Source: Erysipelothrix larvae
Lineage (GTDB): Bacteria; Bacillota_I; Bacilli_A; Erysipelotrichales; Erysipelotrichaceae
NCBI RefSeq assembly: GCF_001545095.1
Contig: NZ_CP013213.1
Span: 2,130,001-2,162,000, forward strand
Direction of reading: 5' to 3'
Length of the DNA: 32,000 nt
Within the stretch, counting starts at the first letter, position 1; every line of letters starts with the position of its first letter. Shown here piece by piece: positions 1-28,221 of this stretch. A program made the translations under genes and the position numbers. A model generated the notes under the pieces. That model did no database searches. It saw only the letters and a program-made list of their open reading frames with translations, and was not told the DNA's origin.

Positions 1-537
1 TATCTGATCCACTAAGATCAGTTCATAGGGTTCAAAGATATAGCTCTTGGTTTGACGTGGGTTCTTTTGATAGGTAATGGATACCCGTTGATGATGTTCA
101 ATCGCTTGTTCTAATGTTTTAATATGGGTTTGATATTGAACGCCATCCACATTCAGACGAACACTTTTAAATGCAGAAACGGACACATGATTTCCGGATA
201 GATCAAACTGATGATAGAGCTTAGAAATTGCACGCACAAAATCACTTCCAAAGGAAGTGTCTTGTTGCGACAACAGCGTCTCTAAGCCCTGTCTCACATG
301 ATTTATTTCCTCAGTGGTAAAGGCTAGTGGATGAATCTGTGATGAATTCATGAGCCTATATCCCCCACCTGGGCCCATAATCGTTTCGATGCGATAACCG
401 ATATACTCCAAATCATCACGCATGCGCTGTACAGTTCGTGGTGTCACATTGAATTCTTGGGCCAATTCTTGAATGGACACAATTGATCGCGTTGAAAGCA
501 TATCAAGCATCAGTAAGGTATCAGTAAGTCGACTCAT
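1..537 (-). CDS. WYL-domain transcriptional regulator (N-terminal HTH plus WYL; YafY/DriD/PafBC-like). Only the first 179 codons are present; the C-terminus lies beyond the left edge.
   Basis: My own reverse-strand translation from the ATG at 537 gives MSRLTDTLLMLDMLSTRSIVSIQELAQEFNVTPRTVQRMRDDLEYIGYRIETIMGPGGGYRL (DeoR/HTH_11-like). It continues to ...HHQRVSITYQKNPRQTKSYIFEPYELILVDQI, the start of a WYL domain. The frame is open to position 1 (checked codon by codon). It is absent from the ORF track because it has no stop in the window. Its ATG overlaps the TGA of the upstream gene (ATGA at 534-537). Confidence 0.8.
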   Translation of the reverse strand, partial: MSRLTDTLLMLDMLSTRSIVSIQELAQEFNVTPRTVQRMRDDLEYIGYRIETIMGPGGGYRLMNSSQIHPLAFTTEEINHVRQGLETLLSQQDTSFGSDFVRAISKLYHQFDLSGNHVSVSAFKSVRLNVDGVQYQTHIKTLEQAIEHHQRVSITYQKNPRQTKSYIFEPYELILVDQI

Positions 538-1085
538 AATAACGCTTCACTTCTCACAGTATAGATTCGTGTTAAGAGTAAATCAAACTCTTCAAACGAA
601 CCAGCAATCTGACATAACCCGCCCAATGTTAACTCAGGAAGTACACTACTTACCTCAACGATACATTGTCGTGCAAGCAATTCACCATTCATCACACTGC
701 CCTTAAAGGTCGATCCAGTATAATCTTGGACAAAATCAATGGTAAACTGTAGCCCTAAGTCACGACTTGCGGTTAATAGATTGGGTTCATTGGTTCCAAA
801 GTAATCAAATAAAGTTGCTTGACCACTCACAATCAAACTGTTCGCTTTAGACGTATTGAACGCAACGCGATATAACATACTGTAGGCTTTATTGAAGCGA
901 ATTTCATTATAAAAATCATTCGCATCATAACTCGTTTCAAACACCAATGTTACCGATATATCCTTGGAGAACTCTAAACCAAAACGCTTCGTAAACTGAA
1001 GTTTAGATTGTCTCATCAGTTCTTGAATATCATCCATCTGCATTTCCTGGGTAAACTCTTTAATTGAATAGCTGCTTTTTTTCAT
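534..1085 (-). CDS. Hypothetical protein, 183 aa, no family recognised; first gene of the WYL-regulator operon
   Basis: ORF track 534..1106. I prefer the ATG at 1085 (MKKSSYSIKEF...) because AAGAGGTGG lies 5 nt upstream. The protein is soluble, with no TM segment or motif I recognise. Its stop overlaps the regulator start. Confidence 0.7.
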   Translation of the reverse strand: MKKSSYSIKEFTQEMQMDDIQELMRQSKLQFTKRFGLEFSKDISVTLVFETSYDANDFYNEIRFNKAYSMLYRVAFNTSKANSLIVSGQATLFDYFGTNEPNLLTASRDLGLQFTIDFVQDYTGSTFKGSVMNGELLARQCIVEVSSVLPELTLGGLCQIAGSFEEFDLLLTRIYTVRSEALL

Positions 1086-1105: not shown

Positions 1106-1141
1106 ATTATAGTATAAGTATACGACAGTTTCAGTCGTATA
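1106..1141 (-). promoter_or_regulatory. Promoter with palindromic operator: TATACGAC-TGAAACT-GTCGTATA (1119-1141), 5 nt, then -10 TATAAT (1106-1111)
   Basis: Reverse strand reads TATACGACTGAAACTGTCGTATACTTATACTATAAT, with perfect 8-bp inverted arms and a 7-nt spacer. CTGAAA inside the spacer can serve as the -35. The same 22-nt core recurs at 28058-28079 with identical spacing to a -10 element. Confidence 0.55.
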
Positions 1142-1560: not shown

Positions 1561-1567
1561 TTGATTA

Positions 1568-1681
<114 letters not shown>

Positions 1682-1779
1682 CAAATTGAGAGAATCTCTC
1701 AAAACTAAATAATAGAAAGTCGATTGATAAGTTGACGTTGTATCCTTTCGGATGTGTTGTTGTTTATAAGACGTTTGTG

Positions 1780-4683
<2,904 letters not shown>

Positions 4684-4954
4684 ACGTCATTACAACCTCA
4701 GCCTGCATAAGACTGGATTGCGCTTTGTTTTTTTTATGTGTTCGCTTTGTTTGTTTGCTTAAGTTACTGTTAAATTGCTTTTTAACTTTGACTTTGTGTT
4801 CTTAGTTTTTCAACTATCCAAAAAGATCCATTTTTTTACCTATCTGAATCTCTTCTATTATTCAGTTTTCAAAGATCCTGAGATGATCGCTTCGATCTCT
4901 CAAAACTAAACAAGAAACGTGTGTACCAATTTCGACGTCTTTCTAATACTCCTT

Positions 4955-6497
<1,543 letters not shown>

Positions 6498-6641
6498 TGA
6501 TTCTTTCTCTTTTATTGTTTACTTTCATAAACACAAACTCTGACAGTTTGTTTTTGTTTTAATTTCTATTTTCGAAATTGACGTTTCTTGTTCAGTTTTC
6601 AAAGACCAATTCGTTGCCGTTCTTACCGAACCGGCTTGATA

Positions 6642-7248: not shown

Positions 7249-7812
7249 TTAAATAAACAATCCGAATGTTAGGCAGATAAAAAACAATGCAAAGCCTACC
7301 AAAGAGCATCTCATCCCTATTGTATATTTCCGATATTTCTTGGAACAGATGATGGAATTGATATAAATTTGTGAGACGATATGATTCATATACTCCTCTT
7401 CTGTCATGTGCAATAAAGAATCCTTATATTTATCGTACGATTCAAACATTACAATGCCACCAAAAAAAATCTTTGATTTTTGTTCAAATTCTAACCCTTT
7501 AATATCCTTCCCTTCTACTTTTGGAATCAATACAAAGATCAAAGTAATAATCCCAACCATAATGAAGAGAACTGATAATAATCCTAAAATAAAAAATATA
7601 AAGTGCATGACAGAATTAAGTTTAAGTGATTCTATAGTAATTTCTTGGATTATTGAAGGGCATTCTGTCGAGAATACTATGGTAAAAAGTCCCGCGAAGA
7701 CAGCGAGTAATATTGATGTCTTATTATCACAGTTTTGCACAAACCCAATTGTACGATCAAGAATATCGACTGCTTCTTCCTTTGTTATTGCATGCTTCGA
7801 AGACTCCATCAT
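7249..7812 (-). CDS. 3-TM membrane protein, 187 aa, resembling Pycsar TM effectors (PycTM / DUF5706-like); no cyclase partner in the window
   Basis: ORF track. RBS GAAAGGTGA lies 4 nt before the ATG. Architecture: N-terminal helix with ..NCDNKTSILLAVFAGLF.. (TM1), then TM2 MHFIFFILGLLSVLFIMVGIITLIFVLIP, then KSKIFFGGIVMFESYDKYKDSLLHMTEEEYMNHIVSQIYINSIICSKKYRKY, then a C-terminal TM. I matched this to the DUF5706/PycTM pattern (DxKxS-ILLA...IFFGxI...EEY...QIYxxSxIxxxKY) from memory only. CDS confidence is high; family assignment is about 0.45. Confidence 0.8.
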   Translation of the reverse strand: MMESSKHAITKEEAVDILDRTIGFVQNCDNKTSILLAVFAGLFTIVFSTECPSIIQEITIESLKLNSVMHFIFFILGLLSVLFIMVGIITLIFVLIPKVEGKDIKGLEFEQKSKIFFGGIVMFESYDKYKDSLLHMTEEEYMNHIVSQIYINSIICSKKYRKYTIGMRCSLVGFALFFICLTFGLFI

Positions 7813-7924: not shown

Positions 7925-7931
7925 TTGATTA

Positions 7932-8045
<114 letters not shown>

Positions 8046-8143
8046 CAAATTGAGAGAATCTCTCAAAACTAAATAATAGAAAGTCGATTGATAAGTTGAC
8101 GTTGTATCCTTTCGGATGTGTTGTTGTTTATAAGACGTTTGTG

Positions 8144-11047
<2,904 letters not shown>

Positions 11048-11318
11048 ACGTCATTACAACCTCAGCCTGCATAAGACTGGATTGCGCTTTGTTTTTTTTA
11101 TGTGTTCGCTTTGTTTGTTTGCTTAAGTTACTGTTAAATTGCTTTTTAACTTTGACTTTGTGTTCTTAGTTTTTCAACTATCCAAAAAGATCCATTTTTT
11201 TACCTATCTGAATCTCTTCTATTATTCAGTTTTCAAAGATCCTGAGATGATCGCTTCGATCTCTCAAAACTAAACAAGAAACGTGTGTACCAATTTCGAC
11301 GTCTTTCTAATACTCCTT

Positions 11319-12861
<1,543 letters not shown>

Positions 12862-13006
12862 TGATTCTTTCTCTTTTTTTGTTTATCTTATATAAACACA
12901 AACTCTGACAGTTTGTTTTTGTTTTAATTTCTATTTTCGAAATTGACGTTTCTTGTTCAGTTTTCAAAGACCAATTCGTTGCCGTTCTTACCGAACCGGC
13001 TTGATA

Positions 13007-27409: not shown

Positions 27410-27497
27410 GGAGAATTGGCCGAGCGGCTTAAGGCACCATCTTGGAAAGGTGGCGAAGTGTATGCTTCCGTGGGTTCGAATCCCATGTTCTCCGCCA
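27410..27497 (+). tRNA. tRNA-Ser (anticodon GGA), class II with long variable arm, CCA encoded
   Basis: Folded by hand. Acceptor GGAGAAT pairs with GTTCTCC. Anticodon stem CCATC/GGTGG has loop TTGGAAA. Variable arm is CGAAGTGTATGCTTCCG. T-arm is GGGTTCGAATCCC. Discriminator G plus CCA. Confidence 0.9.
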
Positions 27498-27507
27498 TAT
27501 TGCGTTT

Positions 27508-27532
27508 AACCCACTGTTTAGTGGGTTTTTTA
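27508..27532 (+). terminator. tRNA-Ser terminator
   Basis: AACCCACT-gttt-AGTGGGTT followed by TTTT. Confidence 0.75.
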
Positions 27533-27745
27533 ATACTTTTTTATCGAGTGAGAAGATTTTGAGAAGATTAATTCTATCGTTATACAACAATAAATGTACA
27601 AGACTACTCCTTTATATATTAAGAATAGATGCGCTGCTTGAACTAACATAAGTGACGGATACGCTTAATTATCCAAATCAATCCTTAAACAGTATCTTGC
27701 TATCCGTTCTAATAATATACACTTTTCAGCTCGTAAATCTTAAAT

Positions 27746-27946
27746 TTAAAAATCACCCTTTGCCCGCGCATAATGTTCTTTTATTTCTTTGAAACTTGTC
27801 TGTTTTGGTTTCTCCGATTGTTTATAACTAATAACATCCTTGAAACTCTTAAAGGTACGTCCTGCATAGATAATCGTCTTTACACCTTTTTCATCAACCT
27901 CTACAAGCGCTTCTGTATGATGCTTGTATGTATTAATCACACTCAT
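27746..27946 (-). CDS. Small hydrophilic protein, 66 aa, unknown function
   Basis: ORF track. Strong RBS GGAGG 7 nt before the ATG. About 94-nt 5' UTR downstream of the operator-bearing promoter at 28047-28079. Confidence 0.65.
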   Translation of the reverse strand: MSVINTYKHHTEALVEVDEKGVKTIIYAGRTFKSFKDVISYKQSEKPKQTSFKEIKEHYARAKGDF

Positions 27947-28046: not shown

Positions 28047-28079
28047 ATCATACCAAGAGTATACGACAGTTATAGTCGT
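28047..28079 (-). promoter_or_regulatory. Second copy of the WYL-operon promoter-operator module: ACGACTATAACTGTCGTATACT, 5 nt, then TATGAT (TGG precedes it, extended -10)
   Basis: The reverse strand ACGACTATAACTGTCGTATACTCTTGGTATGAT aligns with ACGACTGAAACTGTCGTATACTTATACTATAAT at 1106-1138. 20/22 positions are identical in the core, and the 5-nt gap to the -10 is the same. Confidence 0.55.
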
Positions 28080-28221
28080 CAACTTCAATTAGTCCCTCGT
28101 TTTTATCATCTTCTTTCAATATGTCAGGAATGTTCTGTATCTTGTTTATATTTAGCTCGATACGTTTTAGGAAAGTGTTGAGACTGGTTGTTTTTGGTTT
28201 GGAGTTACCAAAACGTCCCAT
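28048..28221 (-). CDS. Questionable 57-aa ORF (below ORF-track cutoff) whose 3' end contains the operator
   Basis: My translation: MGRFGNSKPKTTSLNTFLKRIELNINKIQNIPDILKEDDKNEGLIEVDDYNCRILLV. GGTGA lies 4 nt before the ATG. No recognisable family; it may be non-coding or a gene remnant. Confidence 0.2.
   Translation of the reverse strand: MGRFGNSKPKTTSLNTFLKRIELNINKIQNIPDILKEDDKNEGLIEVDDYNCRILLV

Follow-up and report, generated by a model that had tools for sequence, protein, structure and literature searches.

A 32,000-nucleotide stretch of the Erysipelothrix larvae chromosome (Bacillota, Erysipelotrichia), here called the window, carries two copies of a palindromic promoter-operator module. 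One copy heads an operon encoding a 183-amino acid (aa) protein (AOC36_09855) and a WYL-domain regulator (AOC36_09850), and the other lies 27 kb away in front of an orphan open reading frame (ORF) of 66 aa (AOC36_09980); all three gene products were found at 100 % identity in this organism. The shared module is real and lies above chance expectation. Its sequence, its position relative to the -10 hexamer and the residues of the regulator that would read it closely resemble those of DriD from Caulobacter crescentus. We therefore consider it rather probable that AOC36_09850 is a DriD-like regulator whose putative sites at its own operon and at the 66-aa gene constitute a small regulon activated in response to single-stranded DNA (ssDNA).

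Two putative operator boxes in the same promoter register

On the minus strand, positions 1141-1106 read TATACGACTGAAACTGTCGTATA, CTTATAC, TATAAT, and positions 28082-28047 read TTGACGACTATAACTGTCGTATA, CTCTTGG, TATGAT. Including its spacer, box A is TATACGAC-TGAAACT-GTCGTATA, a perfect palindrome of two 8-nt arms separated by 7 nt (8-N7-8). Box B is TTGACGAC-TATAACT-GTCGTATA, and its two mismatches both fall in outer positions of the distal half-site. These sequences bear out the initial annotation of this DNA, which had reported a 22-nt core identical at 20 of 22 positions between the two loci, a perfect 8-bp inverted repeat with a 7-nt spacer in copy A, and a distance of 5 nt from the core to the -10 hexamer at both loci, which becomes 7 nt if measured from where the 23-nt palindrome ends. 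The good ribosome binding site (RBS) and the minus-strand gene that it had placed behind each box are also present, with GAGGTGG, 5 nt and an ATG at 1085 following box A, and GGAGG, 8 nt and an ATG at 27946 following box B (Table 1).

The promoter at box A (promoter A) has the form CTGAAA-17-TATAAT and matches the sigma-70 consensus at 10 of 12 positions, its -35-like hexamer (4/6) being located within the spacer of the box. The promoter at box B was not called in a scan for the sigma-70 consensus because its -35 hexamer is absent. It is otherwise unrelated to promoter A, yet it shows the same register.

When the window was searched with the palindrome pattern, allowing up to three mismatches, only boxes A and B were found, compared to 0.07 expected matches, and none of 100 shuffled sequences gave two or more matches. 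A position weight matrix (PWM) was derived from the orthologous sites of other species alone, with no E. larvae site included. Scores of 28.0 for box A and 23.1 for box B were obtained with this matrix, the next best position in the window reaching 10.7. A score of 23.1 was not reached in any of 500 dinucleotide shuffles, for which the top score was 18.1. The frequency of the motif, a point on which the initial annotation had made its proposal depend, is thus well above random expectation.

Table 1. Positions of the features discussed, in coordinates of the window.
Feature	Position	Strand	Description
Box A, putative operator	1119..1141		Perfect palindrome TATACGAC-N7-GTCGTATA; over the -35 position of the operon promoter
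-10 hexamer TATAAT, operon promoter	1106..1111	-	7 nt downstream of box A
183-aa protein AOC36_09855, operon gene 1	534..1085	-	
Regulator AOC36_09850, operon gene 2	1..537	-	Winged helix-turn-helix, three helices, WYL, WCX; 179 of 309 aa inside the window
Box B, putative second operator	28060..28082		TTGACGAC-N7-GTCGTATA on the minus strand; two mismatches
Extended -10 TGgTATGAT	28047..28055	-	7 nt downstream of box B; without -35 consensus
66-aa orphan ORF AOC36_09980, presumed second target	27746..27946	-	GGAGG RBS; 5' leader of about 95 nt
rRNA operon 16S-23S-5S, first	1567-6499	-	
187-aa ORF	7249-7812	-	Lone ORF between the rRNA operons
rRNA operon 16S-23S-5S, second	7931-12863	-	

Similarity of box and regulator to DriD

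The DriD consensus ATACGAC(X)7GTCGTAT given in the initial annotation is correct, and the site of the driD promoter present in the crystal structure is ATACGACAGTTACTGTCGTAT (PMC10853764). On the plus strand box A reads ATACGACAGTTTCAGTCGTAT and shares 19 of 21 positions, counting the spacer, with this Caulobacter site. According to a cryo-EM study from 2026, the DriD site overlaps the -35 position and keeps a constant spacing to the -10 hexamer, and DriD-activated promoters lack a -35 consensus (PMC13004042). Since sigma-4 is located on the opposite face of the DNA, RNA polymerase (RNAP) is recruited by DriD via the beta subunit and the C-terminal domain of the alpha subunit (PMC13004042). 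In the 'optimised -35' oligonucleotide of that study, TTGACA occupies positions 7-12 of the 21-mer box (PMC13004042), so that with a 17-bp spacer the -10 hexamer begins 8 nt after the 21-mer and 7 nt after the 23-mer. This is the register seen in Erysipelothrix, an agreement that we infer from the oligonucleotide sequences and not from the figure of the paper.

The designation of the second operon gene as an HTH-WYL regulator was correct, since HTH_11 and WYL domains were found with Pfam, and the full-length protein of 309 aa additionally contains WCX. The resulting order of winged helix-turn-helix (wHTH), three-helix region, WYL and WCX is the one found in DriD and in DdaA of Acinetobacter. 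In the secondary structure of the AlphaFold model, which was built from a shallow alignment and has a mean pLDDT of 69, the wHTH comprises helices within residues 3-45 and a wing, followed by three helices (75-147), a beta-rich region (150-208) and WCX (231-308). Among solved structures, an end-to-end alignment of the Erysipelothrix regulator profile was obtained only with DriD (profile 16-303, DriD chain 23-324, with chain numbering equal to native DriD +4), and this match is weak, with an E-value of about 0.01 and 16-17 % identity.

Within this alignment, R34 and R38 are invariant in the regulator family and correspond to DriD R37 and R41, which read the two guanines of each half-site (PMC10853764). 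T35 and R40 are aligned with DriD T38 and R43. Of the residues contacting ssDNA in DriD, Y168, Y192 and K202 correspond to Y156, Y181 and R/H190, with Y156 and Y181 being invariant. A Foldseek search with the regulator model (pLDDT 69, low TM-scores) returned PafBC and DriD with an E-value of 2.5e-11, and BrxR and CapW at about 1e-5. No match was found with phmmer for the window-truncated regulator against the PDB. In the comparison with DriD, PafBC, BrxR and CapW suggested in the initial annotation, the protein model would thus rank nearer to DriD and PafBC (about 1e-11), which are level with each other, than to BrxR and CapW (about 1e-5), and its proposed DriD-like character holds with respect to domain order, end-to-end profile match, invariant R34 and R38, and fold.

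Conservation within the genus and co-variation of operator and regulator

A total of 22 Erysipelothrix loci were compared, using gene tables for three distinct loci and the ORF following the 183-aa gene for the others. All 19 genome loci of the 183-aa family belong to Erysipelothrix. The gene order in the three distinct loci is 183-aa gene, regulator (306-318 aa) and deoxynucleoside kinase, and in the other loci the regulator ORF directly follows the 183-aa gene. In about 19 of the 22 loci, the first gene is preceded by a palindrome whose GAC-N7-GTC core is invariant, so that the box is kept in front of orthologous operons throughout the genus, a conservation the initial annotation had wanted checked. 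The gap following the box varies in sequence and is always 7 nt long, and it is succeeded in 22/22 loci by TATACT or TATAAT and, after about 7 nt, by an RBS and ATG. The hexamer at the -35 position inside the box matches TTGACA at about two of six positions on average, and roughly every second orthologous promoter has a TGn extended -10. A search of approximately 200 kb of flanking sequence from other species revealed no second site.

In E. urinaevulpis (L001/L005) and in one metagenome-assembled genome (L006), the distal half-site has decayed (TAGGTGCT, TACATGCT), with proximal half-site, 7-nt gap and -10 hexamer retained. This may reflect half-site binding or a loss of regulation.

Four loci (L004, L017, L020, L023) carry GGAC-N7-GTCC operators in place of CGAC or TGAC...GTCG, with geometry and 7-nt gap unchanged. 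Three of the four corresponding regulators have Arg instead of Gln37, the neighbor of the base-reading R38, and the remaining GGAC locus keeps Gln. The Arg37 regulators belong to two lineages that are mutually only 34-37 % identical, and no Arg37 regulator with a CGAC or TGAC operator occurs among the compared loci. Such co-variation of operator and helix is expected if the operon-encoded regulator reads the box. It provides modest evidence, from sequence comparison, for a candidate natural specificity switch that would have arisen in two independent events.

Two further promoter elements were considered and rejected. A constitutive promoter for the regulator inside the operon (TTGATT-17-TATACT, 586-558) is not conserved and is therefore not a feature of the family. 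The TATACT within the right half-site was discarded as the true -10 hexamer, as it is absent from the GGAC class and from other variant boxes, and the downstream hexamer is found in all loci. The deoxynucleoside kinase gene is located 60-80 nt downstream of the regulator in L001, L003 and L004. These gaps contain no terminator, but each harbors a promoter-like sequence; the gene may belong to the operon but probably has its own promoter. In L004 the gene upstream of the operon is cinA, commonly found in front of recA in Firmicutes.

The module in metagenomes

Metagenome contigs were searched with the pattern ACGAC-N7-GTCGTATA-N7-TATNNT, which itself imposes the 7-nt gap and the TATNNT, and 77 matches were obtained, a number roughly equal to the chance estimate. 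At least 18 of these 77 adjoin a WYL/WCX regulator, mostly on AT-rich marine contigs and in most cases with a perfect TATAAT (AT-rich, mostly marine set: L030, L036, L040, L042, L046, L049, L050, L053, L054, L056, L057, L060, L067, L074, L076, L085, L088 and L090). In 11 contigs of this set (L030, L036, L040, L049, L054, L056, L067, L074, L076, L088 and L090), the box, often the full TATACGAC-N7-GTCGTATA, is followed by 7 nt, TATAAT and a nearly leaderless gene for a conserved protein of about 207 aa with MORN_2-like repeats. A WCX-containing regulator of 330-345 aa with the helix DRTIQRDL lies divergent from the ~207-aa gene in the 12 of 18 contigs that are long enough, and a second, tandem box is present about 80 nt upstream in L042, L046, L050, L053, L057, L060, L074 and L085. 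A relationship between the marine ~207-aa protein and the 183-aa family was rejected, as there was no hmmsearch match and the hhalign probability was 0.1.

In three contigs, two of them from the human gut, the box immediately precedes the regulator gene. In the human-gut contigs (L059, 5770-5802; L075, 1270-1302; 32-36 % GC), it is followed by a gene on the same strand whose product starts with MAYEKTHELLDLAIWMQSNREGISLTDIVNYFKVSRRTAERMRD, and the recognition helix is identical to the RRTAERMRD of DriD. In the third contig (L091, 315-1386; 54 % GC), box and TATAAT directly precede the gene of an HTH_11-WYL-WCX regulator, which is the closest match outside Erysipelothrix to the hidden Markov model (HMM) of the Erysipelothrix regulator (E-value 1.6e-29). 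No match to the pattern was found in viral contigs. These neighborhoods show that the module accompanies genes predicted to encode this regulator class in other lineages, with the spacing given by the pattern itself.

The two presumed target proteins

For the 183-aa protein, 34 clusters were found with a word-indexed search, and 19 representatives when 1.8 billion proteins were searched exhaustively with an HMM. It has no match in Pfam, NCBIfam or PADLOC. Its structure model (mc923457eee5e) has a pLDDT of 93.6 and shows an alpha/beta fold with ferredoxin-like elements. Comparison with PDB folds gave nothing convincing, with best TM-scores of 0.2-0.3 and Api92/DUF1281 (2ijr) at rank 2. Weak matches to viral 'YubB ferredoxin-like domain' proteins in BFVD (TM-scores 0.33-0.39) are a lead and not an assignment. 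Judging from the model, the protein may adopt a novel fold or be a strongly diverged ferredoxin-like tandem.

No homolog of the 66-aa protein other than itself was found among 5.8 billion proteins. Its product is soluble and lysine-rich, with a maximum Kyte-Doolittle hydropathy of 0.43 in a 15-residue window and no hydrophobic segment. The loose analogy to the small DriD target DidA drawn in the initial annotation was abandoned for this reason, since DidA is a single-pass membrane protein of 71 aa. Neither target protein has a phage match or a defense match in PADLOC.

Genomic context

The start codon of the regulator gene overlaps the stop codon of the 183-aa gene (ATGA). Box A is located directly beyond a 5S rRNA terminator, and box B between a divergent rpiR gene and the 66-aa ORF. 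The window also contains a V-type ATPase operon, an ABC transporter, PepF, a Nudix hydrolase, tRNA-Ser, an RpiR regulator and sugar-phosphate genes.

The two tandem rRNA operons of the window have near-identical scores, and the WYL operon begins after the 5S terminator of the first. The same layout of 5S rRNA followed by the operon is found in E. urinaevulpis (L001). The lone 187-aa ORF between the rRNA operons matches the Pycsar effector family PycTM (Pfam 3.4e-11; PADLOC PycTM 2e-29, 2TM effectors), and no cyclase gene is visible beside it in the 1.4-kb gap between the operons. The orphan 66-aa gene adjoins a tRNA-Ser(GGA). The stretch at 27410-27946 has a slightly lower GC content of 0.355-0.367, which would fit the remnant of an integrated element.

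Discussion

The analogy to DriD extends to the residues that contact the bases and to the register of the promoter. From these features we infer the binding of the boxes by the regulator, its ligand, the sign of regulation and its physiological role. In the 8-N7-8 palindrome, the recognition helices would recognize the GAC/GTC cores via R34 and R38, at one site over the -35 position of the operon's own promoter and at a second, in the same register, at the promoter of the 66-aa gene. A nucleic-acid ligand, probably ssDNA, would bind to the WYL domain and free the wHTH domains. The bound dimer would then recruit sigma-A RNAP to promoters without a -35 hexamer, as DriD does, and the outcome would be damage-inducible expression with positive feedback on the regulator. 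With regard to the sign, activation is somewhat favored because of the DriD register, the absence of a conserved -35 hexamer, the presence of the three-helix domain and the closer relationship to DriD and PafBC than to BrxR and CapW.

The WYL systems described so far share different parts of this arrangement. DriD (PDB 8TP8, 9PFQ, 9PFV), the WYL activator behind the SOS-independent response of C. crescentus to DNA damage, has in common with the Erysipelothrix regulator the operator with its AT-rich spacer, both base-reading arginines, the domain order, and a box covering the -35 position, with constant spacing to the -10 hexamer, in promoters without a -35 consensus. It differs in belonging to the Alphaproteobacteria, with only about 16-17 % identity, and in its targets, which are didA, recA, recJ, dnaG and bapE instead of a genus-restricted 183-aa and an orphan 66-aa protein. 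DdaA, which replaces SOS in Acinetobacter and other Moraxellaceae, is likewise a wHTH-WYL-WCX homodimer with two conserved arginines in helix alpha-3 (R47/R51) and a palindromic motif of the CGAC-N7-GTCG type (CGWCA-N5-TGWCG). Its regulon is damage-responsive and includes the small effector aciT, which would be a further likeness, but it belongs to another phylum and controls a large set of repair genes (recA, ssb, uvrA/C, ruvAB, dgt) and defense systems.

PafBC of mycobacteria is among the top fold matches, is activated by ssDNA and acts at promoters lacking a -35 hexamer from a site just upstream of the -10 hexamer, features that would resemble those proposed here. However, it is a heterodimer of two paralogs that recognizes a non-palindromic motif and does not bind DNA without RNAP, whereas a single regulator gene per locus and a perfect palindrome are found in Erysipelothrix. 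The mycobacterial motif, probably TGTCRgtg-N8-TAnnnT, may resemble the proximal half-site followed by the -10 hexamer. CapW and BrxR, the repressors of CBASS and BREX islands, are wHTH-WYL-WCX dimers on palindromes in their own promoters and are co-transcribed with the genes they control, as the position of box A and the overlap of stop and start codons indicate for AOC36_09850; the sensing of ssDNA by CapW may be a further likeness. In contrast to these, the Erysipelothrix regulator shows a weaker fold match to CapW and BrxR than to DriD, has an operator of the DriD type and is encoded in a conserved chromosomal context, not in an island. No defense system was found beside the operon, its neighbors in the retrieved loci being rRNA, deoxynucleoside kinase, acetyltransferase and ABC transporter genes.

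Several observations weigh against ssDNA-triggered activation. The profile match to DriD is weak, and the agreement of the registers was read from oligonucleotides. The spacing in the metagenome matches was set by the search pattern. The DriD ssDNA contacts R204 and W206 are not kept, with Leu, Val or Phe in their place. The DriD contacts to RNAP (G18/A20 and R121/R122/P125/E128) are not conserved in the profile alignment, where A20 is aligned with a conserved Arg17 and the contact patch of the three-helix region falls within a poorly aligned stretch. These losses do not exclude activation via other contacts, since the partner RNAP is that of another phylum. Furthermore, DriD, which activates the divergent CCNA_03891/01149 operon, shows no autoregulation, in contrast to the regulator described here, whose gene lies inside the operon it would control. 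Neither target is a recognizable repair gene, and only two sites are visible within the 32 kb of the window.

Some of these points, together with the promoter architecture, would fit a different sign of regulation. The regulator could bind the same sites as a repressor in the manner of CapW and BrxR, a reading absent from the initial annotation, with the apo dimer covering the -35 and spacer region and blocking sigma-A RNAP, and ssDNA releasing it, leading to negative autoregulation and damage-dependent de-repression of both units. A regulator gene coupled behind its own box is the usual layout of negatively autoregulated repressors, and this one is co-transcribed with and translationally coupled to the 183-aa gene, and no separate promoter for it is conserved. 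Extending from about -42 to -20, the box occupies the classical position for occlusion. With its perfect -10 and a 4/6 -35 hexamer in promoter A, and a TGn extended -10 at box B and in many orthologs, basal activity is plausible and the promoters may be active unaided. The lack of the DriD contacts to RNAP also fits repression, and CapW is a WYL repressor released by ssDNA (PMC11662680). On the other hand, in fold and profile the activators DriD and PafBC are closer than BrxR and CapW, their E-values being lower by about six orders of magnitude, and the three-helix region responsible for autoinhibition and RNAP contact in DriD is present. The strictly fixed register, found even at the unrelated promoter B, equals that of DriD activation, in which sigma-4 and DriD occupy opposite faces without a clash, and neither a conserved -35 hexamer nor an adjacent defense system is found. 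We therefore consider repression less likely than activation, though a serious possibility. Both models predict induction when the ligand appears.

It is rather unlikely that the regulator binds the boxes but senses another ligand through its WYL domain, such as cyclic di-GMP (c-di-GMP) or another nucleotide, with a regulon unrelated to DNA damage. The loss of R204 and W206 and the lack of a recognizable repair gene among the targets would agree with this, as would MbpR of Lactiplantibacillus plantarum, an HTH and WYL transcription factor that senses c-di-GMP and is the only characterized case from Bacillota found in the literature search. However, MbpR is monomeric and binds the non-palindromic motif YAATGGTGCCA within coding regions, so that operator and logic are unrelated, and the known users of the CGAC-N7-GTCG operator, DriD and DdaA, all respond to DNA damage. 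In addition, the residues matching DriD Y168 and Y192 do not vary, and a deoxynucleoside kinase gene lies immediately downstream in all three distinct loci with gene tables.

Even less probable is that only box A is functional, in autoregulation, and that box B is fortuitous or decaying, the 66-aa ORF being no real target or gene. The lack of homologs of this ORF, the two mismatches in the distal half of box B, the lack of a second site in the flanks from other species and a weak alternative promoter nearer to the ORF point in this direction. Against it stand the PWM score of box B, which no shuffle reached, its intergenic location and correct orientation, and its distance of exactly 7 nt from an extended -10 that is followed by an ORF with a GGAGG RBS; the alternative promoter would start transcription inside this RBS.

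Systems of this kind have already been described in Alpha- and Gammaproteobacteria. In the literature search, activators of the DriD/DdaA type were characterized only in Proteobacteria, with no example found from Firmicutes, and nothing relevant was found for Erysipelothrix in combination with LexA, SOS or WYL. New are the occurrence in Bacillota, the location of the regulator inside the operon it would control, the natural operator/helix specificity variant, and two targets that are both uncharacterized. The nearly unchanged operator, base-reading residues and operator-to-(-10) register in a Gram-positive genus argue for an ancient regulatory module.

The locus offers a ready-made system for studying a DriD-type regulator together with sigma-A RNAP, including a natural specificity swap between CGAC with Gln and GGAC with Arg. 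It also provides a regulatory context for two proteins that otherwise have none, among them a well-folded, genus-restricted 183-aa family. More speculatively, and with little confidence in the scenario as a whole, box and -10 hexamer could constitute an ancient ssDNA-responsive promoter whose register has been kept from Bacillota to Pseudomonadota and which is part of a positive-feedback circuit, the 183-aa protein being a damage-response or anti-phage effector of a fold not seen before and the 66-aa protein a second effector. If this were true, this Mollicutes-related lineage could depend mainly or solely on the circuit for its SOS-independent response to damage.

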